From Scytonematopsis contorta HA4267-MV1 (GTDB lineage Bacteria; Cyanobacteriota; Cyanobacteriia; Cyanobacteriales; Nostocaceae), in assembly GCA_019359035.1 (NCBI GenBank), contig JAHHIC010000067.1:78078-110077 (forward strand): a stretch of DNA of 32,000 bases. Reading direction: 5' to 3'. The notes beneath the pieces are model-generated. The model had not been told where the DNA came from, searched no databases, and worked only from the letters and a program-made list of their open reading frames with translations. Shown here in pieces: positions 7,978 to 28,760 of this stretch. Each line of letters opens with the position of its first letter. Position 1 is the first letter of the stretch. The translations under genes and the position numbers were made by a program.

Positions 7978-10635
7978 TTGGGCGTTGAGGTTGCAATCGA
8001 AAGCGAGGACAAGCATATGCACAAAAAACGTTTAGTAACCTTAATGCTACTATTAGCTTTGTTTTTGGGAACAGCGATATTACCAAGTTTCGCCCATTTA
8101 CCTGAGCAAAAGACTATTGTGCAGAATATAAAAGTACCTCAGCAACTAGACCAACAAGGCAGGAAACTCTACGCAACCGGATATTTTTCCGAAGCTATTA
8201 CTGTTTGGCAACAGGCTGCTGCTAATTTCCAAGCCGTCGGTGATAAATTACAGCAAGCGATGGTGTTAAGTAATTTATCATTGGCTTATCAGCAATTGAG
8301 TCAATGGAAAGAAGCCAAGAGTGCGATTTCTCAAAGTCTAAATTTATTAGAAAATTTGGATAATCCATTGGATAATTCAAAGCAGCGTTCGCAAATTTTC
8401 GCTCAAATTTTGGATGTACAGGGACGTTTGCAACTCTCATTATCACAACCGGAAGCAGCGCTAAATACTTGGAAACAAGCGACTAATATATATAGTCAAC
8501 TAAATGACAAAGCTTCCGTTAATCGCAGTCGCATTAACCAAGCGCAAGCTTTGCAAAATTTAGGGCTTTACCGACAAGCTGAAAAAATATTAGCTGAGAC
8601 AGGACAAGCCCTTCAAAAAGAACCAGACTCTTCTTTGAAAATTACCGGACTGCGTAGCTTGGGTAATGTTCTTCGTGTCATTGGTGATTTAGAAACATCC
8701 CAGCAAGTTTTGCAGCAAAGTTTACAAGTAGCACAAGCATTGTCTGATTCCGAAGCTATGGGTGATGTGCTTTTGAGTTTAGGCAACACAGCCCACGCAC
8801 AAGGAAACATATCAGCCGCTATCAAATATTACCAGCAAGCAGTTAGTATTTCACCAACCGTACGTCTTCCAGCACAGCTAAAGCAACTGAGTTTATTGCT
8901 GGAAAATAAGCAAATAAGTGCTGCTCAAGCGTTAGTACCAAATATTCAATCTCAAATTAATAATTTACCCACCAACCGTATAGGGGTTTATGCTCGGATT
9001 AACTTAGCAGAAAGTTTGCTAAAGTTATCAGCAATTAATAGTAGTCAACAAAATAATAATCAACAAAATAACAATCAACAACCAATAACAGATATTGGAA
9101 AGCTACTAGCAAAAGCTGTTCAACAAGCAAAAACCCTTGGTGATAAACGCGCTGAATCTCAAGCCTTGGGGTGGTTGGGGAAAGTTTACGAACAAAATCA
9201 GCAGTTTTCTAATGCAAAAGACTTGACTCAACAAGCTTTACTTATAGCTCAGAGTATAAGAGCGTTAGATATTACCTACCAGTGGCAATGGCAGCTAGGA
9301 CGCTTACTAAAGCAACAAGGAAATAACCAAGAAGCAATTGCAAGTTACACTGAAGCCGTTAATTCTCTCCAATCTCTCCGTAGTGATTTAGTAGCCATTA
9401 GTTCAGAAGTTCAGTTTAATTTTAGGGAAGAAGTAGAGCCAGCATATCGTCAATTGGTCGATTTACTTTTAACAACATCCGTAAACACTGGCAATACAAA
9501 TAATAGTAATAGTCAAAAATATATCCTCAAAGCTCGTGAGGTAATTGAGTTACTTCAGTTAGCGGAACTGGATAACTTTTTTCGTGAAGCTTGTTTACAA
9601 CCACAACGTCCAATTGACCAAGTTATTGATACTGAAGACCCAACAGCAGCAGCCATTTATCCAATTATTTTGCCAGACCGACTGGAAGTTATCCTAAAGT
9701 TACCTGGCAAAGCTCTGCGCCATTACACCACTATGGTTAGCCAGAGCAAAGTCGAAAGTACACTGAACGAACTGCGTCAAAATCTTACCACACCTCATAC
9801 TTTGCGAGTTGCTCAGTCTTTATCTAAACAAGTGTATGATTGGCTGATTCGACCTACAGAAGACGAATTGACTAAAAATCAGGTGAAAACCTTAGTATTT
9901 GTACTCGATGGTGTTTTACGCAATATCCCAATGGCAGCTTTGTATAATGGTAAACAGTACTTAGTGGAAAACTACAGCATTGCTTTAACCCCAGGTCTAA
10001 AGTTAATTAACCCCCAAAGATTGCAAAAGCAACAATTAAAGGCGATAACTGCTGGAGTCAGTGAACCACGTGGAGGATTTTCGGCACTACCTAACGTCAA
10101 GCTGGAATTAGCAGAAATTAAGTCTCAATTGCCTAGCGAAACACTTCTTAATCAAGAGTTTACCGCTCAAGCTTTGCAAAACAGCGTCGGTTCACAGCCT
10201 TTTCCCGTAGTACATTTGGCAACTCATGGTCAGTTTAGCTCCGAGGCAAAGAAAACATTTATTGTCGCTTGGGATAAACGCATTTATGTCGATGAACTGG
10301 ATAACTTACTCAGAACTAGAGACATCAGTCAACCTGAAGCAATTGAACTACTTGTTTTGAGTGCTTGTCAAACAGCTGCTGGAGACAACAGAGCGGCTTT
10401 AGGTATTGCTGGTGTCGCTATACGAGCTGGGGCACGCAGTACTTTGGCTTCTTTGTGGAATTTAGATGATGAGTCTACTGCTTTGTTAATGAGCCAATTC
10501 TACCGAGAATTAGCTACCAAGAAAATACCTAAAGCTGAAGCGCTCCGTCGTGCTCAATTAACTTTGTTAAAGAATCCTCAATATAGACGTCCGTTGTTTT
10601 GGGCACCTTATGTTTTATTGGGTAATTGGCTCTGA
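7978..10635 (+). CDS. Secreted TPR-repeat + C-terminal CHAT (caspase-fold) protease domain protein
   Basis: The likely true start is the ATG at 8017 (GAGGA upstream), giving MHKKRLVTLMLLLALFLGTAILPSFA as a signal peptide. A long TPR-like region contains an N/Q low-complexity tract. The CHAT dyad context is VVHLATHGQF (His) and LVLSACQTAAG (Cys). Confidence 0.9.
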   Translation: MGVEVAIESEDKHMHKKRLVTLMLLLALFLGTAILPSFAHLPEQKTIVQNIKVPQQLDQQGRKLYATGYFSEAITVWQQAAANFQAVGDKLQQAMVLSNLSLAYQQLSQWKEAKSAISQSLNLLENLDNPLDNSKQRSQIFAQILDVQGRLQLSLSQPEAALNTWKQATNIYSQLNDKASVNRSRINQAQALQNLGLYRQAEKILAETGQALQKEPDSSLKITGLRSLGNVLRVIGDLETSQQVLQQSLQVAQALSDSEAMGDVLLSLGNTAHAQGNISAAIKYYQQAVSISPTVRLPAQLKQLSLLLENKQISAAQALVPNIQSQINNLPTNRIGVYARINLAESLLKLSAINSSQQNNNQQNNNQQPITDIGKLLAKAVQQAKTLGDKRAESQALGWLGKVYEQNQQFSNAKDLTQQALLIAQSIRALDITYQWQWQLGRLLKQQGNNQEAIASYTEAVNSLQSLRSDLVAISSEVQFNFREEVEPAYRQLVDLLLTTSVNTGNTNNSNSQKYILKAREVIELLQLAELDNFFREACLQPQRPIDQVIDTEDPTAAAIYPIILPDRLEVILKLPGKALRHYTTMVSQSKVESTLNELRQNLTTPHTLRVAQSLSKQVYDWLIRPTEDELTKNQVKTLVFVLDGVLRNIPMAALYNGKQYLVENYSIALTPGLKLINPQRLQKQQLKAITAGVSEPRGGFSALPNVKLELAEIKSQLPSETLLNQEFTAQALQNSVGSQPFPVVHLATHGQFSSEAKKTFIVAWDKRIYVDELDNLLRTRDISQPEAIELLVLSACQTAAGDNRAALGIAGVAIRAGARSTLASLWNLDDESTALLMSQFYRELATKKIPKAEALRRAQLTLLKNPQYRRPLFWAPYVLLGNWL

Positions 10636-10817: not shown

Positions 10818-11435
10818 TTATAAAGTCGCATTAAAAATTTGTTGTGCGGTCAGGTTTAGCTCTGGGAATACAGTAGAAATAATGCGCTCGGACTCCCTAA
10901 ATTGAGAAACCTGATATTCGTCATCAACTAAGTTATAAATTGATAAAGTTGGTTGTTTTGGGCTACCGATATATTTAACACCACCCAACCCAAGATAATC
11001 TACAATCCAATACTCAAGTATTTTTAGTTCCTCATACTCACCCATCTTTTTATAATAGTCATCGCGCCAATTTGTACTAACTACTTCAACCACTAAGGGG
11101 ATAGAAGCACCACTCTGAACAGTAGAATATTTTGCCCAAAGTTCTTCTGTTTTTAAAGCCGGTTTATTAAGTACTAATACATCTGGAGAGTAAGCGGAAT
11201 CACTAGTGGCAGATTGGACTAATGCAGTTTTGGGAATTGAGTAAGGTAATTTTAAACGTTTGATTTCCGAGGAAATTTCAATATTTAAAAATCCTGCAAC
11301 ATCTTCATGGTCTCCAGTTGGCTGTGACATCTCAACTATTGCCCCATTATGTAGTTCGTAACGTTTATCTGAATTTTCTGGAATCCACTCCAAAAATTCT
11401 CGAACTGTTATTGGTTTGAATAATGCTTGAGTCAT
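10818..11435 (-). CDS. Uma2-family (DUF820) PD-(D/E)xK-like endonuclease
   Basis: 205 aa. Motifs: FLEWIPENSDKRYELHNGAIVEMSQPTGDHE, SPDVLVL, PLVVEVVSTNWRDDYYKKMGEYEELKILEYWIVD. This is the typical Uma2 pattern, which is very abundant in cyanobacteria. Confidence 0.85.
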   Translation of the reverse strand: MTQALFKPITVREFLEWIPENSDKRYELHNGAIVEMSQPTGDHEDVAGFLNIEISSEIKRLKLPYSIPKTALVQSATSDSAYSPDVLVLNKPALKTEELWAKYSTVQSGASIPLVVEVVSTNWRDDYYKKMGEYEELKILEYWIVDYLGLGGVKYIGSPKQPTLSIYNLVDDEYQVSQFRESERIISTVFPELNLTAQQIFNATL

Positions 11436-11665: not shown

Positions 11666-12052
11666 CTAGTTCCGTCCTAGATTTCTCAGTGCATTTCCAC
11701 GACCATCCCAAGCATCCTGATAATCGGGTTTAATTTCTATAGCTTTATCGTAGGATGCAACAGCTTCTTCGTATCGTCCTAAATTGCTCAGCGCATCTCC
11801 CCGATTATACCAAGCTTCCTCATCATTGGGTTTAATTTCTATAGCTTTATCGTAGGATGCAACAGCTTCTTCGTATCGTCCTAAATTGCTCAGCGCATCT
11901 CCCCGATTATACCAAGCTTCCTCATCATTGGGTTTAATTTCTACAGCTTTATCGTAGGATGCAACAGCTTCTTCGTATCGTCCTAAATTGCTCAGCGCAT
12001 TTCCCCGATTATTCCAAACAAATCCCGCATATGTCCACCACTCATTAAGCAA
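11666..12052 (-). CDS. TPR-repeat segment, probably the displaced C-terminal sensor part of the upstream P-loop ATPase
   Basis: The 34-aa TPR units read WYNRGDALSNLGRYEEAVASYDKAIEIKPNDEEA. The ORF has only a TTG start and overlaps the ATPase ORF by 61 nt. Its reading frame stays open upstream of the TTG. Confidence 0.7.
   Translation of the reverse strand: MLNEWWTYAGFVWNNRGNALSNLGRYEEAVASYDKAVEIKPNDEEAWYNRGDALSNLGRYEEAVASYDKAIEIKPNDEEAWYNRGDALSNLGRYEEAVASYDKAIEIKPDYQDAWDGRGNALRNLGRN
11710..12010. repeat. About 3 near-perfect 102-bp tandem DNA repeats encoding the TPR units
   Basis: CCAAGCTTCCTCATCATTGGGTTTAATTTCTA... recurs at 11810 and 11912 (period 102), with almost no substitutions. Confidence 0.85.
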
Positions 12053-13056
12053 AGATGATTTAGAGTTTCTGGACTATCAAACACTGATGGTAAATCTAAT
12101 CCATTTACTTTATTATCTAATGTTTGTTCTAATTTTGGCTCGATTAATCTCACTCGCTGACAAATCAGTTCTCGCAATTTATTAAGTCCAACTTCGTTAA
12201 CGCTACCATCACGATTTCGTACCATCATCATCGGTACTACGTCAAGTTTATGATAGCTAGCTTCAATATTATTCACCACATCTGAGTATACAATATCAAT
12301 GGGTACAGTGTAGATAACATGACATTTTAATCCCCGTAACATCTCGCTACGGTTTAGATAGATTTCTTCATAGTTGCTTCGTTTCCCTTCTTCTTGAACT
12401 TCAACAATTCTGTCTAAATTATCAGCAATTACGACTAACCCTTTATTTCCCCCTTTTAGTAAAGATTTTTGAGCTTGCTGAATAAAATTATTTAGCGCTT
12501 CAACCAACGAAGGTGTGTTAGCATTTATTTTTTGACGCAGTTCCCGTCGCTTATCGGGAATAGCTTTGATTGTGGCTGTAATCTTAGAAAATTGGGAAAT
12601 TTGCTGTTCTAGACTTAACCCTTCAAATGATATTGGCGTAAGCATCAAATCTTTGAAAGATTCCCAGCGTGACTCCATCCATTCTAATAGCGGGTTATGA
12701 TTTTCTATTTTAACTGCTTCTATCAAATGCCGAGTACAAGCCATTACTATATCAGCATACTCCACATCCTCTGGTTCAATATCTTGGTCATCTACCGCAA
12801 AGTAAACAACAAAGTATCCTTTTTGTTCCAGGTATTCTTTCAAACGCAATAACTCTGTGGATTTACCAGTTCCCCTATGTCCTGAACAAAGCTGACAAGT
12901 AGGCTGATTAGAAAGTATTATTTTCTTCCCCAACTCTTGAAATACTTCCCAATTACCCCTAACCTCTCGACAATCGACATACGCTTCTTTCGATGCTGTC
13001 TCGAAAGGATTGAAGGAATTGTAGATTTCTGCAAGCAAATCTAATTTCACAAGCAA
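11992..13056 (-). CDS. STAND/AAA-like P-loop NTPase (frame-shifted relative to its TPR tail)
   Basis: 354 aa with Walker A SGHRGTGKSTELL and Walker B GLVVIADNLDRI. It ends ...MSGGHMRDLFGIIGEMR* inside the region where the TPR frame (…AGFVWNNRGNAL…) is already open. Confidence 0.75.
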   Translation of the reverse strand: MLVKLDLLAEIYNSFNPFETASKEAYVDCREVRGNWEVFQELGKKIILSNQPTCQLCSGHRGTGKSTELLRLKEYLEQKGYFVVYFAVDDQDIEPEDVEYADIVMACTRHLIEAVKIENHNPLLEWMESRWESFKDLMLTPISFEGLSLEQQISQFSKITATIKAIPDKRRELRQKINANTPSLVEALNNFIQQAQKSLLKGGNKGLVVIADNLDRIVEVQEEGKRSNYEEIYLNRSEMLRGLKCHVIYTVPIDIVYSDVVNNIEASYHKLDVVPMMMVRNRDGSVNEVGLNKLRELICQRVRLIEPKLEQTLDNKVNGLDLPSVFDSPETLNHLCLMSGGHMRDLFGIIGEMR

Positions 13057-13141: not shown

Positions 13142-13324
13142 AGAGACTTCCAAAATATAATTTATCCAATGAAAGTAGTGCGAGCATCTTGCTCGCTTGT
13201 TGTCGATAGTGAGCATCTTGCTCGCTTGTTGTTGATAGTGAGCATCTTGCTCGCTTGTTGTCGATTGCGAGCAAGATGCTCGCACTACAGTTGGTGATTG
13301 GATATTTTTTATTTGTAAGTCTCT
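13142..13324. mobile_element. MITE-like element with about 40-nt terminal inverted repeats and an internally amplified 29-bp hairpin unit
   Basis: Left end: AGAGACTTCCAAAATATAATTTATCCAATGAAAGTAGTG-GCGAGCA-TCT-TGCTCGC. The right end is inverted: GCGAGCA-AGA-TGCTCGC-ACTACAGTTGGTGATTGGATATTTTTTATTTGTAAGTCTCT. GAGCATCTTGCTCGC recurs at 13182, 13211 and 13240. It belongs to the same family as 22486-22872. Confidence 0.7.
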
Positions 13325-13376
13325 TGGATAAATTAGGCTTACTCTCCAACTAGAGGTTGAGCCGAGATAAAGGCGC

Positions 13377-13526
13377 TTAACGGAAATAGAGGCTGTTAGC
13401 GGAGCGTGCAGTTAAAAATTCATCGATTCTGACTTTGCGTAAATCAATACAATTCGCTGTTTGAGGGAGTTTGTCTGCTTTGTTAACTGCTTCTACTATT
13501 ACAACGTCTGGTATAGGTTTTAACAT
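13377..13526 (-). CDS. Hypothetical 49-aa ORF downstream of the RHH-like ORF (very tentative)
   Basis: Hand-translated: MLKPIPDVVIVEAVNKADKLPQTANCIDLRKVRIDEFLTARSANSLYFR*. It is below the ORF-track cutoff and has no recognisable motif. Confidence 0.2.
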   Translation of the reverse strand: MLKPIPDVVIVEAVNKADKLPQTANCIDLRKVRIDEFLTARSANSLYFR

Positions 13527-13568
13527 AAAAAGCTGATGGAATTTATAACAACTATATCTGTAAACTAT

Positions 13569-13745
13569 CTATTTCTCTAAATTGTGCTTTTTGATTATTT
13601 CATGGTTTTCAGGCTTTTTTAGCCAATCACAAACTGCTTCAGTAAGTGCATCACTGAGGTTTATATCTTTTAATACGGCTACTGCTCTGAATAACTTGCT
13701 TATATTGCCAGGAACATATCCCCGCAATTCTTTTTTATCACTCAT
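13569..13745 (-). CDS. 58-aa ribbon-helix-helix (CopG/antitoxin-like) DNA-binding protein candidate
   Basis: Hand-translated: MSDKKELRGYVPGNISKLFRAVAVLKDINLSDALTEAVCDWLKKPENHEIIKKHNLEK*. It shows a beta-strand (LRGYVP) then helix-turn-helix pattern, with AAGG about 10 nt upstream of the ATG. It is divergent from the GNAT gene and below the ORF-track cutoff. Confidence 0.45.
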   Translation of the reverse strand: MSDKKELRGYVPGNISKLFRAVAVLKDINLSDALTEAVCDWLKKPENHEIIKKHNLEK

Positions 13746-13857
13746 TATTTACCTTATACGCTATGGCTATCAGTATTGTGACACAGTTAGAGAATAATTA
13801 TGCTTTTATGCTTTTGCGCGTTTACGCATAAAATAGTATAATTACAATATTGCTCGT

Positions 13858-14472
13858 TTGGTACTGGTAAATGTACCAATATCGAAATTAATCAGGGGAG
13901 CTTCCGTGCAAAGAAATATTTATTTGACCAAGGGTTCTGATAATTCAACTGTAGAGGCTACCATCGTCAATTTGGCTACCAAGCATGTTAATGATTTTGA
14001 AAATCAATGGGTTGAATTACTTAAACAATACGAACAACAAGATAAATTTTGGGATTTGGAGATAAAGCTTAGAATGATTTCTAGGAACGACAATTACGAA
14101 GGGTATGCAGTTGAGTGTGAAAACCAAACTGAAGGTTTACTAGTTCTTGAAACTCAAATGCATGGTTCTCAAATGACACCCAGACAACGCCTAATTTATA
14201 TTTATTACATAGCTACGGCACCGTGGAACAGAGAAGATGTGCAACGTCCACCTAGACTGAGAGGGGTTGGAACGTCATTGTTGTTATTTACAAGAGAAAG
14301 AAGTTTAGAATTAGGTTACTCTGGTAGAGTTGGATTACATTCGTTACCAGGATATGAAAAGTTTTATGATAATCGTGGAATGTATGATTTAGGCTCCGAT
14401 GAAGATGTAGATGAGTTAGTATATTTTGAGTACGGTTTGTGGCGTCAACGGTTACAAGGGAATGATAATTAA
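13858..14472 (+). CDS. GNAT-fold N-acetyltransferase with an unassigned about 90-aa N-terminal region
   Basis: The acetyl-CoA motif A-like segment is RLRGVGTSLLLFTRERSLELGYSGRVGLHSLPGYEKFY. The more likely start is the GTG at 13906, behind AGGGGAG. Confidence 0.65.
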   Translation: MVLVNVPISKLIRGASVQRNIYLTKGSDNSTVEATIVNLATKHVNDFENQWVELLKQYEQQDKFWDLEIKLRMISRNDNYEGYAVECENQTEGLLVLETQMHGSQMTPRQRLIYIYYIATAPWNREDVQRPPRLRGVGTSLLLFTRERSLELGYSGRVGLHSLPGYEKFYDNRGMYDLGSDEDVDELVYFEYGLWRQRLQGNDN

Positions 14473-14473
14473 A

Positions 14474-14995
14474 ATGGATAATCAAAAAGAACAGCACTAT
14501 TCAGTTTCTAATCCCCTTGATTTGCTCCTTGACTCTGAGTATATGAAACAAGCCATTGCAGACGAGACTTCTGTTGGAGGTAGTATTGGTGCGGGATTAG
14601 ATTGGGGTCCGAACATTGGTAAACTATTGTTTGATGTTACATTATTAGGACGCCTGACGACTTTGCGTATATCACTTAACAAGGAAGCCCGTCTAACAAT
14701 CGAAGCTTTAAATTTAGGAGAAAAAACTAAACTCATTTCACGTGCAGCAAGAGAGCGTATTAAAGAAAAATTACTTTTCCCCACACCAACAGCAATTCCT
14801 CATATAAAATCTGTTTTAGAGCGGGATAATTTATACGACGCTCAATATATCTCTGACCGGGAAATTTTAAAATTTTTACTCAAAGTAATTCTTACCGACC
14901 ATGATAGAGAAATTATTGCAGAGGGTGGTAGTAACTCTGAACGTTTTCAAATTATAGCTGAGCTTTGCTTTGATGAAGTCGTCTCACAATTATGA
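14474..14995 (+). CDS. Hypothetical 173-aa soluble protein, translationally coupled to the upstream GNAT gene
   Basis: The ATG at 14474 lies 1 nt after the GNAT stop (14470-14472), giving MDNQKEQHYSVSNPLDLLLD.... No TM segment and no motif I recognise. Confidence 0.55.
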   Translation: MDNQKEQHYSVSNPLDLLLDSEYMKQAIADETSVGGSIGAGLDWGPNIGKLLFDVTLLGRLTTLRISLNKEARLTIEALNLGEKTKLISRAARERIKEKLLFPTPTAIPHIKSVLERDNLYDAQYISDREILKFLLKVILTDHDREIIAEGGSNSERFQIIAELCFDEVVSQL

Positions 14996-15185
14996 ATTCG
15001 CGTTCAAAGCAACTTAAACAATGACTCTCCCAATACCTAATTGTTTTCATCGTCAGGTTCCGGCATAATTTTATCCAGCCTATCATTAGCATCCTTCGCA
15101 AGATGGATACAGCGAACGCTGGAAACCAAACCACCAGCAGCAATTACACTCCCGGACGGGATTTTGTTGAACCAGGGAAATCATT

Positions 15186-15671
15186 GTGAATACCGAAAAT
15201 GTGAGCATTCGTTCTATTTCTTGGTCAGAATATTGTTCTATTCGTCCACAGTTGTACACCAAAGAAGCTATACTATTTGACCCTGATAAGCCAATTCTTA
15301 CAGAAGAACAAGAAAAAGAGTGGTGGGATAATTCAGTTTGTAAGGGAAAGCATTTCGTCTGGGGTATATTTGTGGATAACTCAGTTTTATGTGGAATACA
15401 ATGTGCTTTTTCGTTTTCAGAAGACATGTCTGAATGTGAAACTGGACTTACCATTTTCCCATCAACAAATTGGAATAAAGGAATTGGAAGAAAATCGACT
15501 AAGCTATTGATGAATGAGTTGTTTAAGATTACCTCTTTGAAGGCTATTAGGGCTGAAACGAATATCTTAAATATTGGAGCAATTAAAATATATGAGACAC
15601 TGGGTTTTACAATAAAGGAGAAAAAGAAAGAAGATTCTGTGGAATGGGTTATCCTGATATACAGTATTTAG
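15186..15671 (+). CDS. GNAT-family N-acetyltransferase (RimJ/RimL-like)
   Basis: 161 aa with a GTG start. Motif A is NWNKGIGRKSTKLLMNELF and the C-terminal motif is NIGAIKIYETLGFTI. Confidence 0.75.
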   Translation: MNTENVSIRSISWSEYCSIRPQLYTKEAILFDPDKPILTEEQEKEWWDNSVCKGKHFVWGIFVDNSVLCGIQCAFSFSEDMSECETGLTIFPSTNWNKGIGRKSTKLLMNELFKITSLKAIRAETNILNIGAIKIYETLGFTIKEKKKEDSVEWVILIYSI

Positions 15672-15699
15672 GGATAAGGAATAATAAGGTATTGAGCCG

Positions 15700-15993
15700 A
15701 TTCCGGAAATGATTATACTTTTTTTAAATATTATTTCGGAGAAAAGGGGTCAACAAGTAATTTGCGAAATAAATGCGTCGCTACGTTAAAAATTATCCTC
15801 TGTTTTTTTTTGCTGTTGCGTACATAAATATTCTATAAGCATCAAAGGTTATTCCTCCCCCAACACCTAAAATTGTAACCACCCGACAAACACTTATTTT
15901 ATACAACAAAATAAAATCTGATTGCTGCCCATGTATCCCAAACCGCGACTACCTTACCGAATAAACGGAAAATATTGTAATCATTTCCGGAAT
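15700..15993. repeat. 294-bp segment bounded by a perfect 16-bp inverted repeat (MITE-like or relic)
   Basis: ATTCCGGAAATGATTA at 15700-15715 is the reverse complement of TAATCATTTCCGGAAT at 15978-15993. The interior is non-coding and includes a T10 run. Confidence 0.5.
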
Positions 15994-16207
15994 ATGCTGC
16001 ACTCAGTAAGTATTATATGGTTGTACTCGCTTGGTGTATACTATGGAATCATTAACCATTGGTGCTATTGTTTTCCTGACCTAGTTTGGTAATAAGCTAA
16101 TTGATTGGGGTATTGAAAAAGCCTATTACACTAGCAAGATTGCTAAAAACTACAAATAATTCACAAGTAAATTTAATAGTAATAATACCACTACCCAGGA
16201 GCGCTCA

Positions 16208-16729
16208 ATGCCTTTTAATCTTTTTAACCGCAACAAAGATAATAACTCACAGCCACAAGAAGAAAATACCGTTGCTGACTCACAGTTACAAGCAAAAAAC
16301 ACCGTTACTGGTTTGATTGGATTACCTGGTTATAATAATCCTAGCCGTCGAGCTGATATAATTTTTGTTCACGGACTAGGAGGTCATGCTTTTAACACTT
16401 GGCATCCCAAAGAAATTTTAAATCCCCTAATATCTCAGCAAGATTTAGATAACGAATCTTGGCTGTATTGGTTGGGAAAAGACATAAAAGATGTCGGAGT
16501 TTGGACTTTTGGGTATGAGGCAAATTTCTCTAAGCTAAATGGTGGAGCTATGTCACAGTTTGACCTGGCTAAATATTTCCTTGAATGCCTAAATAATAAA
16601 CGCATTGGCAAGGAAAGACCAGTATTCTTTATTACTCATAGCTTAGGCGGTATTTTAGTCAAGAAAGCTCTTTTATACGCTCAGGAATATTCTGATATAA
16701 AACCTTACTTGAAAACAGTAAGGGTATAG
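16208..16729 (+). pseudogene. N-terminal part of a lipase-like alpha/beta-hydrolase effector domain (segment 1 of a disrupted hydrolase-NB-ARC-TPR gene)
   Basis: IIFVHGLGGHAFNTW forms the oxyanion-hole region and FFITHSLGGILVKKAL contains the GxSxG nucleophile elbow. The ORF stops at the TAG at 16727-16729, while the domain continues in the -1 frame. Confidence 0.8.
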
Positions 16730-17292
16730 TGTTTTTAGCAACACCACATAATGGTTCTCATCTAGCAAATTTAGTGAAAGCTTTTGATGTAATTTTACGC
16801 ACCACAATTAATGTTACAGAACTACAAGCTAATAATTCTTGGTTGCGAGAGTTAAATTCTACTTATAAGCAAAGAGTTGGTAACGAAAGCATAAAAATTG
16901 CCGCAAAAGTTTATTATGAGGGACGGGATACACTAGGCTATAAAGTTGTGGATGAATGTAGCGCAGACCCTGGACTTTATAATGTAATGTCAGTTCCAGT
17001 ACCTTATGCTGACCATATCCAAATTGCAAAACCTAAATGTCCGGAGGATGTCGTTTATGAAGGTGTGAGAAATTTTATTGAAGACAACTTACCACCTCAA
17101 AAATTCCTACCCCCTGCTGATAGTAACCCAATTCCAGAGCTAAATTCTCAGCAGAAAATTGCTCCGGAAACAGTGGAAGCTCAACCTGATAACACCCAAA
17201 ATACTGGAGCTATCGCTAATCATATTGAGAAAATAGGTGTTGTGAACAGCGACACGAAAATTGAAAATCAAAATATCACCCAAAACTTCTGA
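16696..17292 (+). pseudogene. C-terminal part of the alpha/beta-hydrolase domain plus linker (segment 2)
   Basis: This frame is open from 16696 and reads YKTLLENSKGIVFLATPHNGSHLANL..., the expected continuation of the hydrolase fold. It ends at the in-frame TGA at 17290-17292. Confidence 0.8.
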
Positions 17293-20241
17293 CTGCAGTC
17301 GTCCGACCGGGAGCGGATAAAGATAAATCCCCCTAACTTCATACCTTATAAAGGAACTGACCATTTCGTTGGACGGTTAGAAGAACTGGCCGCAATTCAC
17401 GAAAAATTTAACCAGCAAAAAAACGCGGTCGCAATTTCTGCGGTCGCTGGGATGGGAGGTGTGGGTAAAACAGAGCTAGCGTTAAAATATGCACGCTCCC
17501 ATGAAGATAATTATCCTGGGGGGATTTGCTGGTTTAGCGTCCGCTCTAGTAATATCGCAACTGAAATTCTCAACTTTGCTAAAAATGACCTGAAATTAGA
17601 AATACCACAGAAAGACGACTATCAAGAACAACCCCTGACACTTAAAGAACAAGTACAATGGTGTTGGCGAAATTGGCAACCACCTGAAGGGTTCGTTTTG
17701 GTAGTATTTGATGATGTAACTGATGTAGAAAACTTTGCTGATTATTTACCAACAAATCAGCGCTTTCGGGTCTTGATAACAACCAGATTGCGAAATATTG
17801 ATACTGAAATTGAAGAAATATCTTTAGATGTACTATCACCTGAAGAAGCTTTAAAATTATTAAAAAGCTTGATTGGCGAAAACAAGGTAAATAAAGAGCT
17901 AGAAAAGGCTAAAGAGTTATGTGAATGGTTGGGATATTTACCATTAGGTATAGAATTAGTAGGAAGACATGTATCTAAAAAGCCTCCTCACTTTACTTTA
18001 GCTAAAATGCTGGAGCAGTTGAAACAACAGCGACTGTATCAAGAAGCAATAAATCCCAAGCAAAAGACTTTAAGTACAGCACAGCTTGGTGTACAAGCAG
18101 CGTTTGAATTAAGCTGGTTGGAGCTAGACGAACAAACACAAAAAGTTGCTGCATTGTTAAGTTTATTTGCAGCAGAAATTTTTGCATGGGAGTGGGTAGA
18201 GTCTATAACTAATTCCCTTTATTGGGATGAAGATGTTGTTAACACAGCGATTGAGCAACTTTACCAAAGACACTTAGTTAATGGCTTAGAAGAGTCGGAT
18301 ACATATTACTATAAAATCCATACCTTAATTCGCGAATTTTTACAAGAAAAGCTAGCAGCGTTACCAGAAGCTGAGGAGTTTAAAAGAGTGTTAGCGCATT
18401 ATTTTATAGAAATTGCTCAGTCAATTCCTTATTCAGCAACCCTAGAGATAATCGCGGGAGTAAAAAGTGCAATTCCCCACTTAGCTGTTGTTGCAGAAAA
18501 TTTGATAGATTCGGTTAGCGATGAAAATTTAATTTGGGCTTTTGTTGGTAATGCTAGATTTTACTCCTCACAGGGTTTGTATGTGCTAGCAGAACCTTGG
18601 TATAAGCAATGTGTATTGGTCGTAAAATCTCACTTAGGAGAAAATCATCCCTACTATGCTGGTAGCTTGAACAATTTAGCTGGACTCTACTGCTCTCAAG
18701 GAAAATATGAAGAAGCTGAACCGCTTTATATCGAAGCATTGGAGTTAACAAAACGCAACCCTGGAGAAAATCACCCCAACTATGCTACCAGCTTGAACAA
18801 TTTAGCTGGACTATACGAGTCTCGAGGAAAATATGAAGAAGCAGAACCGCTTTGTATCCAAGCATTGTCTTTAATAAAACGCATACTTGGAGAAAATCAT
18901 CCGGACTATGCTGGTAGCTTAAACAATTTAGCTGAACTCTATCGTTCCCAGGGAAAATATGAAGAAGCAGAACCACTTTATATCGAAGCATTGGAGTTAA
19001 CAAAACGCAACTCTGGAGAAAATCATCCGGACTATGCTAACAGTTTGAACAATTTAGCCGTACTCTACTACTCTCAAGGAAAATATGAAGAAACAGAACC
19101 ACTTCTTATCGAAGCATTGTCTTTAACAAAACGCATACTGGGAGAAAATCATCCGGACTATGCTAACAGCTTGAACAATTTAGCTGAACTCTATCGTTCC
19201 CAGGGAAAATATGAAGAAGCTGAACCGCTTTATATCGAAGCATTGTCTTTAACAAAACGCATAACAGGAGAAAATCATCCGGACTATGCTAGGAGCTTGA
19301 ACAATTTAGCTGGACTCTATCGTTCCCAGGGAAAATATGAAGAAGCTGAACCGCTTTATATCGAAGCATTGTCTTTAACAAAACGCATAACAGGAGAAAA
19401 TCATCCGGACTATGCTACCAGCTTGAACAATTTAGCTGTACTCTACAAGTTTCAAGGAAAATATGAAGAAGCTGAACCGCTTTATATCGAAGCATTGGAG
19501 TTAACAAAACGCAACCCTGGAGAAAATCACCCCAACTATGCTACCAGCTTGAACAATTTAGCTGTACTCTACAAGTCTCAAGGAAAATATGAAGAAGCTG
19601 AACCGCTTTATATCGAAGCATTGTCTTTAAGAAAACGCATAACAGGAGAAAATCATCCCGACTATGCTCAAAGCTTGAACAATTTAGCCCTACTCTACGA
19701 CTCTCAAGGAAAATATGAAGAAACAGAACCATTTCTTATCGAAGCATTGTCTTTAAGAAAACGTATAACAGGAGAAAATCATCCCGACTATGCTCAAAGT
19801 TTGAACAATTTAGCCCTACTCTACGACTCTCAAGGAAAATATGAAGAAGCTGAACCGCTTTATATCGAAGCATTGTCTTTAACAAAACGTATTTTAGGAG
19901 AAAATCATCCCGACTATGCTAGCAGCTTAAACAATTTAGCTGCACTCTACGACTCTCAAGGAAAATATGAAGAAGCTGAACCGCTTTACACGCAAGCATT
20001 GGAGTTAAGAAAACGCATTTTAGGAGAAAATCATCCCGACTATGCTCAAAGCTTAAACAATTTAGGTGGACTCTACGACTCCCAAGGAAAATATGAAGAA
20101 GCAGAACCACTTTACCAGCAAGCTCTAATTGTTTGCGAACAGAAGTTAGGTGTTGGTCATCCAAATACAATTACAGTTAGAGCTAATTATGCTGAGTGTT
20201 TAAAGTTGATGTCCTATAGAGGATTTGCAAACAATCTTTAG
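17293..20241 (+). pseudogene. NB-ARC STAND NTPase + 12 TPR (42-aa, kinesin-light-chain-like) repeats (segment 3, same frame as segment 2)
   Basis: The frame is open directly after the TGA: LQSSDRERIKINPPNFIPYKGTDHFVGRLEELAAIHEKFNQQKNAVAISAVAGMGGVGKTELA. The first ATG (17452) lies inside the Walker A loop, and there is no ATG, GTG or TTG between 17293 and 17451. Other motifs: Walker B LVVFDDV, RVLITTR, and GLPL-like GYLPLGIEL. Confidence 0.85.
18637..20148. repeat. 12 x 126-bp near-identical tandem repeats encoding the TPR sensor array
   Basis: GGAGAAAATCATCC(G/C)GACTATGCT recurs with an exact 126-bp period, and 12 x 126 = 1512 bp. A degenerate 13th unit starts at 20149 (GVGHP). Confidence 0.9.
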
Positions 20242-20438: not shown

Positions 20439-20666
20439 CTATGTGATGTAAATGTACTTTTCTTGAAGAATCTTCAAAATAAAATTTGCCAAGTCAGCTC
20501 GAAAATCCTCTATACAACTAACTCTTGCTCTGAAGGCTTCGTTGAGAAAAGTGTACAGTTCTGCATGATTTTGTGGCAGGTTGTTATCATGACTTTGGGC
20601 ATAGCTTGAAATTAAAGCTGCCGTAAAAGGGTTTCTTGCGATTGGAACAATTTTATGCACGCACAA
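20439..20666 (-). CDS. Hypothetical 75-aa ORF overlapping the 3' end of the AAA/PD-(D/E)xK gene by 14 nt
   Basis: Supported by the ORF track only. No motif recognised; it could be a gene relic. Confidence 0.25.
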   Translation of the reverse strand: MCVHKIVPIARNPFTAALISSYAQSHDNNLPQNHAELYTFLNEAFRARVSCIEDFRADLANFILKILQEKYIYIT

Positions 20667-22203
20667 CTATAATATTGCGTCCGTTTTTTGTGGTAACAGT
20701 TTTAGTTGATAATCGTTCTTGAATTGGTAACGCCTTGGAGCGTCGGTCGAAGATAATCAACCAGCCAAAATTTTCTTCTATTCTAGCTAAATAAGAGTCA
20801 ATTTGTTCTAAACCAACTTCAACTGGGTCGCCTTTTTTATCTCGCCAAACTTTTAATTCTATTCCTAATGTCGTACTTCCATATCTTAAACATAAGTCCA
20901 TGCGGTCATTTCCAATTGCATACTCGCGTTCTAGGGTTCCACCTCCATTAACGACGCGATGTAGAAATGCCATTAATACTAAATGAGGCGCTACTTCATG
21001 ATACCCAGTAGTTCCTAATAAAGGCTCACCATGCTGACACCAAAATTTTATAAATGCTTGTAGCAAACTTTCGGTGTTTAATTCTCCTTTTTCTGTTAGC
21101 CAAGTTGGCGATATGTGAGGCAGTGAAGCCATTGGTGTTATTGTTAGTACTCGCGGTAAGATTTCGCGATAAATTGGATTAGCGATTCTTAATCCTCCTT
21201 GTGGGTCAATTGTGCATAAACCTAAATCTATAACAAATTGAATATCATCTGGAGGTACATTTCCTAATTCCAAACCAGCTAACATTGGTTCAATAATTGT
21301 CTGTACCCTTGACTCTTGAAGCCTTTCTGCAAGTGAGTCTAAATGTGTATCTTTACGAGCAATCAATATTTCCTTGGCTTTTAAAATATGTTCGTGTGTA
21401 ATTGCGATGCTTCTATCCTCAACCATCTTTTCGACAATTTCTTTTGCTAAAGCATTTACTAACCAAGGTTGACCTTGAGTTAAATCAAATGCCAATGCTG
21501 ATGCGGATTCAGTAAAAATTTGCCCCGTGTCATCAGTATGTTGCTGGTAAAGCTCTGCTACTTCGGCAGCATTAAAATTTCTTAATGTGAAGGAACCGAC
21601 TTTAATATTAAATGGACTCGATGTGTTTAATCTCTCACTTCCCCCAGATGCATATTTATAATCACGTACATCTCGTAAACCAATTAATCCTATAGATTGC
21701 GGAAAGTTTTTAGGACGACCTCGATACCCTTCACGTAATTGTCGTAAAAATGATATTAATGTTTCATTTTCTAAAGAATCAATTTCATCTATTAGTAATA
21801 CCACAGGAAGCTTACAATTTTGCGCCCAAGCTCTTAAACTTGCTCTTATCCTTTGTCCAGGCTCTGGGTAGTTCCAAGTGGGAGGTTGCAAATCTTGCGG
21901 TAGATTGTCCTCAATTGTATCACGCCAAGTTGGAAGAATTGCGATTTCGGCAGCACCTGGGTCATCTTTATAAGCACTTCCAACTTCTACAGATACCATT
22001 ACTGCTGCATAATTTCCGCTCGAAGTTAGCTCTTCTGCTAAAGATATCATTGCTGTAGTTTTACCCGTTTGTCGGGGTGCATGAATCACAAAATAGTTAC
22101 GTTGTTCTATTAGCTGTTTCAAATCTGGCAATCTGTTGCTTGATGCCAGCATGTAGTGAATATCAGCTTGGCAATGACCTGCAGTGTTGAACCAACGAGG
22201 CAT
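20653..22203 (-). CDS. Predicted AAA-type ATPase fused to a C-terminal PD-(D/E)xK nuclease-like domain
   Basis: The N-terminus is MPRWFNTAGHCQADIHYML. Motifs: Walker A HAPRQTGKTTAM, Walker B VVLLIDEIDSL. The C-terminal segment GNDRMDLCLRY...LGIELKVWRD shows the D...ExK pattern. Confidence 0.75.
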   Translation of the reverse strand: MPRWFNTAGHCQADIHYMLASSNRLPDLKQLIEQRNYFVIHAPRQTGKTTAMISLAEELTSSGNYAAVMVSVEVGSAYKDDPGAAEIAILPTWRDTIEDNLPQDLQPPTWNYPEPGQRIRASLRAWAQNCKLPVVLLIDEIDSLENETLISFLRQLREGYRGRPKNFPQSIGLIGLRDVRDYKYASGGSERLNTSSPFNIKVGSFTLRNFNAAEVAELYQQHTDDTGQIFTESASALAFDLTQGQPWLVNALAKEIVEKMVEDRSIAITHEHILKAKEILIARKDTHLDSLAERLQESRVQTIIEPMLAGLELGNVPPDDIQFVIDLGLCTIDPQGGLRIANPIYREILPRVLTITPMASLPHISPTWLTEKGELNTESLLQAFIKFWCQHGEPLLGTTGYHEVAPHLVLMAFLHRVVNGGGTLEREYAIGNDRMDLCLRYGSTTLGIELKVWRDKKGDPVEVGLEQIDSYLARIEENFGWLIIFDRRSKALPIQERLSTKTVTTKNGRNIIVVRA

Positions 22204-22923: not shown

Positions 22924-25900
22924 ATGGTAGATTGGTTAGTCGTTTGGGGAGCTACCAAAGCATTTGGGGTTTTAGTGACTCCATTCCTCCAGGATTTAGC
23001 GAAAGATGGAGCAAAAGACCTCGCTGTAGGTTTTTTTAAAGACACTCTCACCCATCAATTCCGCGAAAAAGACCCGCGTCAGGTTGCGACTGGTCAAGCA
23101 ATTAAGATACTTTTACAGCGCATACAGCAAGAGTTAAAAATTCGTCATAAAATTCCTGACCCGGAAATTCAGCATTGCGTCTCGGATGTGAAAAAATTTC
23201 TTGCTCAAAAGCAGGTACAGGAATTTCTCGGACAACCATTTGATTTAAGCTGCGATTCTTTAGATAGCAACACCCTCAAAAAATACTGGGACGATTTAAA
23301 GTTAATATCCCTACCACCTAATTTTAACTGGTCGGGTGTCACGGAAGATTATTTCTTTCAAGTCAAAACAATTCTCGATGACCCCGAATCAAAGGATTTA
23401 AGGGATATCCTTCAGTGTCAAAAGCTCGCAGATATTGATAAAGCTACCCAAGATATTAGAAAAAACACTCAAGAAATCGCCGGAATTATTCCAGAGTTTG
23501 ATTTAATCACATATCAAGAAGCTATTTTAGAAACTTACGAAAAATTAAAGTTAGATAGCTTAGACACGAGCGGATATGCTTACAACGAACTAAAACTGTG
23601 GCGCATTTTTACAGAGCAAGATGCACGCGCTGTACATCAATATTTACCCCGCGTTTACGAACTACCTAAAGAGCATTTCCAAAAACTCAAATCCAGCGAC
23701 CAAATTGAAGCACGCGATTTTAACGAAGAAGAAATCGCCAATCTCAAACGCGGTTATCTGGAACAACCAATTACCCCTGTCCTAGAAATTGTTCGTCAAA
23801 AGTCTACTTATAAATATACCGTTATTTTAGGCGACCCTGGCTCTGGTAAATCTACTTTATTACAACATTTAGCGGTAACTTGGGCAAAATTATCACCCCA
23901 AGAAGCAGCAAAACAAGATATTCCTTTATTAATTGAACTGCGTACTTATGTTCGCAAGCGCGAAAATCAAGAATGTAAAAATTTTCTTGATTTCTTCCAT
24001 AACTGTAGCGGTGTTATTCACCATCTTAACCAGCATCTATTACACGAAGAATTAAAAGCTGGTCGCGGTTTGGTTATGTTTGACGGGTTAGATGAAATTT
24101 TCGACCCAGCAATCCGCGAAGATATTATTACCGACATTCACCGCTTTACCAATACTTATCCCAACGTCCAAGTAATTGTTACTTCTCGCGTTATTGGTTA
24201 TAAAGCAGATAAGTTAAAGAACGCGAGATTTTCTCACTTTATGTTACAAGATTTGTCAGCAGCACAAATTCAATATTTTATCCAGCGCTGGCATAATTTA
24301 ACATATGATAACCAAGAGGAACGACAAAGAAAAAGCGAGCGCTTATCAAGAGGTATTCATAATTCATTCGCAATTCAAGAACTAGCTGGAAATCCGCTAT
24401 TGTTAACAATGATGGCGATTTTAAACCGCAACCAAGAGTTACCCAGAGATAGAGCAGAGCTATACAATCAAGCATCGCGAGTGTTATTGCATCAATGGGA
24501 TGTCGAGCGCGTTTTAATTGAAGATAAACGTATTGACCCGAAAACAATTGACGATAAAGATAAGCAATCAATGCTGCGCGAAGTTGCTTATAAAATGCAA
24601 ACTAGCGCTAAAGGTTTAGCGGGTAATTTAATTGAAGAAGCAGATTTAAAGAAGATTTTAAGCGAATATCTCAGAAATAACAATATTTATCCCGCAGAAT
24701 CAAGAGAAGTTGCAGTATTGATGATAAACCAACTGCGCGCTCGTAATTTCATGTTATGTTTCGTTGGTGCGGAATATTATGCTTTTGTTCATCGCACTTT
24801 CTTAGAATATTTCTGCGCGACTAAATTTGTAATAACGTTCGAGAAAGAGCAAAGTCTTTCTAAAGAACAATTAAAAACAGAAATTTTCGGTCAACATTGG
24901 CAAGATGAAACCTGGCATGAAGTGTTACGCTTAATAGCGGGGATGATTGATGCTAAGTTTGTCGGTGAGATTATTGATTACCTCATGAAGCAAAAGGGGG
25001 AACGAGAGAATTTTAGCAATATTTTTCTTGCAGCTAAGTGTTTGCAAGAGGTAAGAAATAGGACTGTAATTGCTGAGGTGAGCGAAAAATTATTAAATGA
25101 GCTAAAAGGCTTGATTCGTTATGTTATCATTAGGGCTTCGAGCAGTACAATAAACGAAACAGTTAATCAAATTCGTAAAGATGCAATCTCTGCTATTGCT
25201 ATTACATTTATTGATGACCCTGATACCCTCCCTTGGGTAAAACAACTTGCTACAAAGGATAAAGATAGGTTTGTGCGAAGTACTGCTGTATGGGGATTAG
25301 CACATAATTATAAAGACGACCCCGATACCCTCCCAATCCTAAAACAACGCGCTACACAGGATGAAGATATGTTTGTGCGAATTACTGCTGTCAGCGAATT
25401 AGCAGGTAATTATAAAGACGACCCCGATACCCTCCCAATCCTAAAACAACGTGCTACACAGGATGAAGTCAGCTTTGTGCGAAGTACTGCTGTAAGGGAA
25501 TTAGCAGGTAATTATAAAGATCACCTCGATACCCTCCCCTGGCTAAAGCAACACGCTACACAGGATGAATCTAGCGATGTGCGAAGTACTGCTGTAAGGG
25601 AATTAACACGTAATTATAAGGATGACCCCGATACCCTCCCAATGCTAAAACAACGCGCTACACAGGATGAATCTAGGGACGTGCGAAGAACTGCTGTCAG
25701 CGAATTAGCACGTAATTATAAGGATGACCCCGATACCCTCCCAATGCTAAAACAACGTGCTACACAGGATGAATCTAGCTCTGTGCGAAGTACTGCTGTC
25801 AGCGAATTAGCAGATAATTATAAAGACGACCCCGATACCCTCCCCTGGCTAAAACAACTCGCTACACAGGATGAATCTAGCTCTGTGCGAAGTACTGCTG

Positions 25901-28670: not shown

Positions 28671-28760
28671 CGAACCGCCAAGGAGCCAAGGAAGCCAAGT
28701 TTAAGCAGTTTAAAAGAGAGATTTCTCTTCCCTTGGCGCTCTTGGCTTCTTGGCGGTTCG
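28671..28760. repeat. Long imperfect inverted repeat of GCCAAG(G/A)-type heptamers bridging the CHASE2 gene stop codon
   Basis: The arms 28671-28699 and 28732-28760 are reverse complements at 25 of 29 positions, with a 32-nt loop. The right arm encodes the C-terminal tail ...AKKPRAPREE of the upstream ORF. Confidence 0.8.

Follow-up and report, generated by a model that had tools for sequence, protein, structure and literature searches.

An in-frame UGA followed by a conserved RNA hairpin separates effector and NB-ARC-TPR sensor in cyanobacterial NLR-type genes and suggests programmed stop-codon readthrough

Dyrka et al. 2020 (10.1101/2020.01.06.895854) described Bell effectors whose C-terminus carries an amyloid signalling motif (BASS); the adjacent NLR begins with the same motif, and its gene is collinear with that of the effector and in many cases overlaps it. 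The effector may also be an alpha/beta-hydrolase, TIR, CHAT or guanylate cyclase domain, and stop codons or readthrough are not mentioned in that study. Here, we analyze a locus within a stretch of 32,000 nucleotides (hereafter the window) from contig JAHHIC010000067.1 of Scytonematopsis contorta HA4267-MV1, in which an alpha/beta-hydrolase effector is followed in the same frame by an NB-ARC-TPR sensor, with a TGA codon between them. The locus resembles the Bell/BASS pairs and the fungal HET-S/NWD2 and SesB/NLR systems in that a short effector with an amyloid-type motif lies upstream of, and collinear with, an NB-ARC/NACHT protein carrying TPRs. With the Bell/BASS pairs it further shares the effector types found in its class (Bell-like helical, alpha/beta-hydrolase, TIR, CHAT) and the host phyla (filamentous cyanobacteria). 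Those pairs possess two motif copies, a start codon for the NLR and any relative frame, often with overlap, whereas our locus has a single motif copy, lacks a start for the NLR, and shows a strict in-frame TGA-C and a conserved hairpin.

The second body of knowledge that bears on this locus is viral. Programmed readthrough with a 3' stimulator is known from the gag-pol junction of murine leukaemia virus, where a pseudoknot lies 8 nt past the stop, and readthrough in bacteria from the Q-beta A1 protein; alpha-, tobra- and coltiviruses use UGA-CUA/CGG together with a stem-loop. Our junction shares with these a presumably leaky UGA with C as the next base (UGA CUR), a structure about 8-9 nt downstream, and a predicted pair of products, one short and abundant, one long and rare. 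It differs in belonging to a cellular bacterial gene family, and in having a simple 5-bp hairpin. Finally, there are all-in-one NLRs of bacteria and fungi with a lipase-like hydrolase at the N-terminus: the homologues P0017, P0030, P0062, P0085 and P0088 are fusions of hydrolase and NB-ARC/NACHT (and AAA_35), and P0017 has the same linker. These are uninterrupted ORFs (open reading frames), unlike the locus in the window, where a putative recoding stop and an amyloid-like motif lie between the domains.

The three ORFs of the locus are one ancestral unit, composed of a DUF676-like hydrolase, an amyloid-like motif, the TGA, an NB-ARC domain and 12-13 TPRs. A preliminary description of this DNA had already joined them into one effector-NB-ARC-TPR (NLR-like) gene, and its coordinates and frames all hold. 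The features are as follows.

16208 to 16729, forward strand: ORF1, the N-terminal half of the alpha/beta-hydrolase effector, with the HGLGG oxyanion region and the nucleophile Ser in THSLGG, supported by homologue alignment
16696 to 16702, forward strand: likeliest site of a 1-nt deletion, where the frame switches from 2 to 1, placed by homologue alignment and the frame-1 stop at 16693-16695
16696 to 17202, forward strand: C-terminal hydrolase half, with GIVFLATPHNGS, the Asp in DECSADPG and the His in ADHIQIAKP, followed by a Pro/Gln-rich linker
17203 to 17289, forward strand: amyloid-signalling-like C-terminal motif TGAIANHIEKIGVVNSDTKIENQNITQNF, 44-53% identical to Bell-type effector motifs
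17281 to 17337, forward strand: full junction motif, UGA CUR NAG YCG, hairpin and AAAG ... UCCCCC, as matched by a covariance model
17290 to 17292, forward strand: in-frame TGA, a conserved stop of putative recoding type, with C as the next base (17293) and CTG as the next codon
17293 to 20241, forward strand: NB-ARC-TPR reading frame of 982 codons, open directly behind the TGA
17301 to 17318, forward strand: RNA hairpin GUCCG-ACCGGGAG-CGGAU, 5 bp with an 8-nt loop, from the RNAalifold consensus, beginning 9 nt past the stop
About 17389 to 18063, forward strand: NB-ARC domain (Pfam, 71.5 bits against a cut-off of 23.5)
17449 to 17472, forward strand: P-loop (Walker A) GMGGVGKT, inside the NB-ARC domain
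About 18580 to 20200, forward strand: TPR array, 13 TPR_12 stretches (Pfam, E 7e-198)

ORF1 lies in frame 2, contains FVHGLGGH and ITHSLGG, and ends in a TAG that is produced by a frameshift. Frame 1, open from 16696 behind the TGA at 16693-16695, reads YKTLLENSKGIVFLATPHNGS... and carries on the hydrolase fold (KGIVFLATPHNGS, DECSADPG, ADHIQIAKP) to the TGA at 17290-17292. The repaired hydrolase matches DUF676 with 26 bits (Pfam cut-off 20.3). All catalytic motifs are present but not on one polypeptide, the Ser being encoded in ORF1 and the Asp and His in ORF2. Past the TGA, frame 1 continues with LQSSDRERIKINPPNFIPYKGTDHFVGRLEELAAIHE...AVAGMGGVGKT and without a stop to 20241. The second segment and the NB-ARC ORF are in the same frame and parted only by this TGA, as had been stated before, such that only readthrough of the stop would fuse effector and sensor. 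Between 17293 and 17451 there is no ATG, GTG or TTG, and the earliest ATG (17452) lies within the P-loop, which bears out the earlier view that the NTPase has no start of its own. The parallel once drawn between the lipase-like effector and the fungal SesB type appears apt, as an analogy only.

We propose that this junction is a site of programmed UGA readthrough, which would yield a short effector and, at a constitutive low level, a long effector-NLR fusion; from the comparative evidence given below, we consider this probable, though far from certain. The preliminary description had named stop-codon readthrough or recoding as one of several options, and this is the one that the evidence favours.

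The nearest NB-ARC relatives, with up to 76% identity, align from query residue 1, i.e., from the codon immediately after the TGA. Many NB-ARC relatives are annotated from MGGVGKT and a few from "MQSSERER...", and the "M" of the latter is encoded by a CTG that immediately follows an in-frame TGA, with a 146-codon ORF ahead of it (L007, L008). An equal arrangement exists on Nostoc plasmids (L009, L010) and on the Acaryochloris marina plasmids pREB4 and pREB8. In Brasilonema, Scytonema, Nostoc plasmids and Acaryochloris plasmids alike, the order is effector-TGA-CTN-NAG-YCG-hairpin-NB-ARC in one frame. The same junction is found behind unrelated effectors: in the DNA alignment, an island of nucleotide identity begins at the TGA and is flanked by unrelated upstream domains, while the downstream NB-ARC regions are about 60% identical to that of the window at the protein level. 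As to the earlier question whether orthologues encode separate genes with their own starts, the relatives do keep the stop, but they have no start behind it.

A protein-seeded scan of one genome per species gave 80 NB-ARC loci, which together with loci collected earlier and the window make up a survey set of 87 P-loop genes from Nostocales, Coleofasciculaceae, Microseira, Okeania and Acaryochloris. In 31 of these 87 NB-ARC genes, an in-frame stop lies 48-61 codons ahead of the P-loop. Their upstream ORF is in the same frame, has its own start and comprises 124-298 codons; the first canonical start follows 4-54 codons past the stop, and none is found at or near it. The stop is TGA in 30 cases and TAG in one (L085), the following base is C in all 31, and the codon after the stop is CTG (14), CTA (14), CTC (2) or CAG (1), never TTA or TTG. 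For the 56 control genes, the first upstream in-frame stop is TAA in 26, TAG in 17 and TGA in 13, followed by A (30), C (13), G (8) or T (5). Treating related loci as independent, Fisher's test on the 31 versus the 56 genes gives p = 5e-12 for TGA and p = 2e-13 for C at position +4; as Leu codons in these genes are 42% CTN and 58% TTA/TTG, the occurrence of CTN in 30 out of 30 cases has a p of about 4e-12.

The 10-nt palindrome GACTGCAGTC at the stop is not conserved (L010, L012), and its single occurrence in the window is within chance. The closest hydrolase homologues (P0001, P0005 and P0009, about 300 aa) were dismissed as models for the window; they are true stand-alone genes without an amyloid motif, ending in TAG or TAA with a terminator hairpin behind the stop. 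Behind the stand-alone hydrolase stop, L001, L002 and L004 show a conserved GC-rich, terminator-like hairpin CCCCTCCGAA...TTCGGAGGGG with a T run. The neighbours of these three hydrolases vary: GUN4; a 96-aa ORF with a TPR protein; and an upstream NACHT gene.

Applied to the 31 junctions, RNAalifold predicts a single helix of 5 pairs with an 8-nt purine-rich loop, 9 nt past the stop, and 95.5% of the stem cells are paired. The second pair is CG in 16 and UA in 12 junctions, the fourth CG in 16, GC in 7, UA in 3 and UG in 3. None of 500 shuffles reached the observed covariation, and registers slid along the alignment fall to 20-51% paired. The hairpin is present in 28 of the 31 stop-containing junctions vs 1 of the 56 others (p = 2e-18). 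Compensatory changes shift the encoded peptide in concert (Ser...Thr/Ile vs Pro...Ala/Val; SERER vs SGGAP), as would be expected if selection acted on RNA pairing rather than on the peptide; the near-identical syntenic orthologues L007 and L008 differ by one such double change. Because G-U pairs are frequent, the structure would be that of the sense-strand RNA rather than of the DNA.

A pseudoknot may form between a loop GGGA and a UCCC farther downstream (about 90% paired), but the UCCC partner is also a conserved Pro-Pro codon pair, which confounds the signal. Rfam has no match in window positions 16000-18000, and a tRNA scan of the window found no tRNAs. A variant downstream sequence, CCC GAA GGG GAA TCG ATA..., occurs in the stop-containing junctions of L038 and L060 (3959-4015 in each) and is missed by the covariance model; it would form another small hairpin, CCC-GAA-GGG.

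An independent set was obtained by scanning metagenome contigs with a 19-base degenerate pattern, which gave 93 matching stretches. Nearly all share the same anatomy, namely an upstream effector ORF, the TGA, and a long in-frame ORF with NB-ARC or NACHT. Upstream ORFs are of Bell-like type (MEPLTAGAIA...), hydrolases in five cases (L101, L130, L145, L153, L166) and a TIR in one; among the genome loci, a CHAT domain takes this place in L015. At the two stem positions left free by the pattern, 79 and 81 of 82 distinct sequences pair, as UA 43 and CG 33 at the first and as CG 48, GC 18, UG 8 and UA 7 at the second. A covariance model built from metagenomic examples only finds the window site with 59.6 bits (E 5e-12) as the sole significant hit in 32 kb; of the 30 further loci with the stop in the genome and plasmid sets, it detects 28. 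In stop-lacking junctions it gives no full-length match and only two partial matches that omit the stop region (L185, L186). Viral contigs scanned for the motif yielded no hits.

Taken from the sequence comparison, the TGA is a conserved and selected feature of more than 100 cyanobacterial loci. The preliminary description had listed the TGA as a second break in the gene, with recent inactivation among its possible causes. This view is overturned by the relatives, where the same stop, context and hairpin recur in 31 of 87 genes and in about 90 metagenomic loci; the TGA-C-T-N and the covarying hairpin conserved across loci argue that the TGA is neither a recent inactivation nor an artefact. A plain pseudogene, in which TGA and frameshift would both be inactivating lesions of a decaying gene or else assembly errors, gains some credit from a frameshift that is private and splits the catalytic triad, and from the origin of the sequence from a metagenome-assembled genome (MAG). 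We regard it as very improbable in view of a TGA whose position, codon, context and hairpin are identical in more than 100 loci of several cyanobacterial orders, with purifying selection on both of its sides. The 1,180 downstream codons hold no further stops or frameshifts, and over 13208-18722 an independent Logan assembly of SRR12688486 matches the window with 100% identity.

Selection was assessed by the ratio of nonsynonymous to synonymous substitution rates (dN/dS). Thirteen pairs were compared from the stop to the P-loop; 11 of them have a ratio of 0.12-0.6 and the remaining two have 0.78 and 1.35, against 0.13-0.27 for the NB-ARC body. Purifying selection acts on both flanks of the stop. 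Moreover, the Pfam NB-ARC match begins 21 codons ahead of the first ATG. Being part of the NB-ARC domain and under purifying selection, the stretch that leads from the stop to the first Met is evidently translated in this frame. One natural sense-codon variant was seen: in P0017 of Moorena producens JHB (L185:2320-2364), GAG replaces the TGA while linker and hairpin are kept, and the gene is an uninterrupted, constitutive hydrolase-NB-ARC fusion. This GAG at the stop position indicates that the fused polypeptide is a viable product. A second candidate, P0314, was rejected as a Trp variant; its protein record has W, but the DNA (L189, ENA contig k141_596624) has TGA. The W is an artefact of a gene caller reading TGA as Trp and could mislead searches for sense variants.

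In termination followed by reinitiation, ribosomes would end at the UGA and, held in place by the sequence and the hairpin, resume translation close by in the absence of a canonical start codon, making an NB-ARC-TPR protein without effector or motif. This would account for the conservation of the stop and for hundreds of Bell proteins of 124-132 aa annotated as ending here; PGAP already calls the CTG as a start, and the canonical systems use two proteins (10.1101/2020.01.06.895854). We nevertheless judge it quite unlikely. Of the codons found behind the stop (CTG 14, CTA 14, CTC 2, CAG 1), CTA and CTC are not known as initiation codons, and as they make up half of the set, initiation at this codon is improbable. 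No Shine-Dalgarno-like sequence precedes the post-stop codon, the strict same-frame linkage would be unneeded, and an NLR made in this way would be devoid of both signalling motif and effector.

Selenocysteine would be a further way to decode the UGA, with the hairpin as a bacterial selenocysteine insertion sequence (bSECIS), and a UGA with a hairpin shortly downstream is indeed the signature of selenoproteins. The bSECIS model demands that one of the first two loop bases be G and that UGA and loop be 16-37 nt apart (PMC13188914). The loops here start with AA, AC or GA at a spacing of 13 nt, such that both rules fail, and L085 uses TAG. The site is an inter-domain linker rather than a redox centre, and the sense variant is Glu, not Cys. 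According to the literature, the host phylum is without the machinery: the selenocysteine trait was not detected in Cyanobacteria (PMC1794560), and a tRNA with UCA anticodon was found in none of 61 cyanobacterial genomes (PMC6933170). Together, this renders selenocysteine extremely improbable.

UGA-C is the weakest UGA context, as established for E. coli. With reinitiation and selenocysteine being unlikely, this context in place, and a structure spaced from the stop as recoding stimulators typically are, readthrough remains. As we envisage it, most ribosomes would stop at the UGA and free the effector-plus-motif protein. A minority would decode the UGA as sense, probably as Trp via a near-cognate tRNA, with the weak UGA-C context and a hairpin positioned at the mRNA entry channel as aids, and the product would be an effector-motif-NB-ARC-TPR fusion. 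One gene would in this manner supply many effectors and few sensors with an identical motif, where canonical systems need two motif copies. Upon ligand-driven oligomerisation, the sensor might then seed the free effectors and so activate them. What we infer from the conserved junction is the readthrough, the residue inserted and this stoichiometric logic.

Several observations weigh against readthrough. The whole case for it is comparative, with survey p-values that, as said, count related loci as independent, and we know of little precedent for cellular genes of bacteria in which a hairpin stimulates readthrough. In the window itself, the hairpin is weak, with 4 Watson-Crick pairs and one G-U, and the window junction folded alone is not significant (z = 0.5), so that the structure rests on comparison. 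Two genes that lack the stop, L185 and L186, have the hairpin too, which may therefore have a role beyond recoding. In addition, the hydrolase-type upstream ORFs of L130, L145 and L166 end without an obvious amyloid motif, and the shared-motif logic cannot cover every case. Concerning L186, the stretch 1092-1620 is a canonical pair of Bell-motif and motif-NLR genes (TAA stop, own ATG) in which the hairpin-coding linker lies right behind the motif copy of the NLR.

Readthrough might also be conditional. In that case the UGA would stop ribosomes nearly completely, and the sensor would be made only under translational stress, upon shortage of release factor 2 (RF2), or in the presence of a phage-borne suppressor tRNA, the locus thereby monitoring decoding. 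The same sequence evidence speaks for such a switch as for constitutive readthrough, and UGA-C is the context at the autoregulatory site of the RF2 gene itself. In Anabaena, derepression of the plasmid-borne trn tRNA operon raises stop-codon readthrough (PMC10272220), which counts in its favour as well. Yet a constitutive low level accounts for the same facts more simply, and we deem the switch unlikely. In more general terms, the UGA-hairpin might be a dedicated bacterial recoding element that sets or conditionally gates the production of NLR-type sensors from effector genes, in the strongest form with a sensor only when UGA termination fails; this wider idea we consider doubtful.

Returning to programmed readthrough as the favoured explanation, the effector side deserves a closer comparison with canonical pairs. 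The last 29-34 residues ahead of the stop in the window (...AIANHIEKIGVVNSDTKIENQNITQNF) are 44-53% identical to the Bell C-terminal motifs of L112, L117 and L177, and the core A..EKIG.V is common to the window motif and to the motif on both partners of the canonical pair L024. By this match with the Bell motifs of the stop-containing class, the window locus is a hydrolase-effector member of that class. Canonical pairs also occur in our data set (L014, L017, L019, L020, L024, L028, L041, L043, L049, L088 and L186); there, an ATG and a separate copy of the motif belong to the NLR, whose frame mostly differs from that of the effector. In the stop-containing class, one motif copy lies directly before the TGA, at the distance from FVGR that the motif of a canonical NLR has; neither in the window nor in any of the 31 loci does the NLR have a start codon and a second motif copy between stop and P-loop. 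As the pair-finding of Dyrka et al. requires the motif on both proteins, it would miss this class.

On L094, two stop-containing loci (4004 and 9648) share one contig, and L083 carries a canonical pair and a stop-containing locus (3689 and 7405), from which it follows that the two architectures coexist in one genome. Synonymous divergence (dS) of effector vs NLR halves, with the junction at about 4000 in each sequence, is 0.11 vs 0.99 for L032/L061, 0.29 vs 1.16 for L048/L060 and 0.73 vs 0.25 for L030/L037. The strong difference between halves suggests that the junction is also a recombination breakpoint at which effectors and sensors are swapped.

In contrast to the TGA, the frameshift within the hydrolase is a genuine disruption, as had been claimed before, and the relatives are all intact at this site. 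Hydrolase homologues are uninterrupted here, be they stand-alone, fused to NB-ARC, NACHT or AAA_35, or of the TGA-junction form, and among them the frameshift is private to the Scytonematopsis contorta HA4267-MV1 MAG. One added base at either of two A4 runs (16699-16702 and 16712-16715) restores the frame, as already observed in the preliminary description; the alignment restricts the choice. At the lesion, the window reads EYSD|YKTLLENSKG where the intact P0001 has DYPQYKVLTTNIKG, and aligning EYSD|YKTLLENSKGIVF with DYPQYKVLTTNIKGIVF of P0001 places the lost base within 16696-16702, which suits the first A4 run or a neighbouring T but not the second run. The Logan assembly of SRR12688486 contains the frameshift as well as the TGA. 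Most likely, the frameshift is a real, recent and private 1-nt deletion; its recency is deduced from the some 1,180 codons downstream, which are free of any other stop or frameshift. A sequencing error is possible.

Programmed -1 frameshifting or transcriptional slippage at 16696-16715 was considered and rejected, there being no slippery heptamer, A runs of only 4 nt, and homologues that are in frame. The deletion parts the catalytic Ser from Asp and His, and the effector of the window copy is therefore probably dead, i.e., this copy appears crippled by its own frameshift. At 16727-16731, the TAG ending ORF1 overlaps a GTG opening ORF2 (taGTG), and owing to this overlap the C-terminal hydrolase half and the sequence after it could still be translated by coupling.

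The TPR region contains a 126-nt tandem repeat (18636-20114) of 11.7 copies with 87% identity. The independent short-read assembly named above breaks inside the array at 18722, and the TPR copy number in the MAG may accordingly be unreliable. In the NCBI record of this MAG, the two hydrolase pieces are listed as separate hypothetical proteins (MBW4510457.1 is ORF1), and exact-sequence look-up returned no record for the 929-aa ORF3 product or for P0121. Public annotation of the gene class as a whole is inconsistent (P0140, P0143, P0147, P0141, P0154 and others), with starts placed variously at the CTG behind the TGA, at some internal Met or at the P-loop Met, or with the gene marked 'partial'.

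The neighbourhood of the locus (4491-31094) is dense in conflict-system genes:

4491 to 7511, reverse strand: TPS-domain protein
7978 to 10635: TPR-CHAT
10818 to 11435, reverse strand: Uma2 nuclease
11992 to 13056, reverse strand: AAA_16
20653 to 22203, reverse strand: AAA_35-like ATPase
22924 to 26979: NNH2-NACHT-HEAT
28710 to 31094, reverse strand: CHAT-CHASE2

Judged by its sequence, the locus itself would be a cyanobacterial NLR-type conflict gene, active in immunity or cell death and built from effector, recoding stop and sensor. Programmed readthrough and effector/NLR signalling pairs are both of known kind; new is the UGA-hairpin junction that joins them, for which we found no published description. 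The literature searched in full text holds no account of stop codons, readthrough or recoding in cyanobacterial Bell/BASS/NLR or STAND genes. Conserved in-frame stops are common in prokaryotes according to a general survey, which does not include this signal (PMC7918605).

Several consequences would arise for this gene family. Hundreds of cyanobacterial NB-ARC/NACHT genes are mis-annotated, and surveys of NLRs and effectors that demand two motif copies overlook the stop-containing class. What looked like a double-hit pseudogene in the window would be an ordinary recoded gene that carries one private lesion. To our knowledge, programmed stop recoding in bacterial cellular genes is very rare outside phages and selenoproteins; if readthrough holds true, the junction would represent a large conserved family of such recoding, with UGA CUR NAG YCG and the hairpin as its cis signal. 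It would also explain a fixed ratio of effector to sensor as well as identical motif copies, both from one gene. Should even the strongest form apply, an immune receptor would be wired to the fidelity of its host's own decoding and could be triggered, for example, by translational stress, RF2 depletion or phage suppressor tRNAs.

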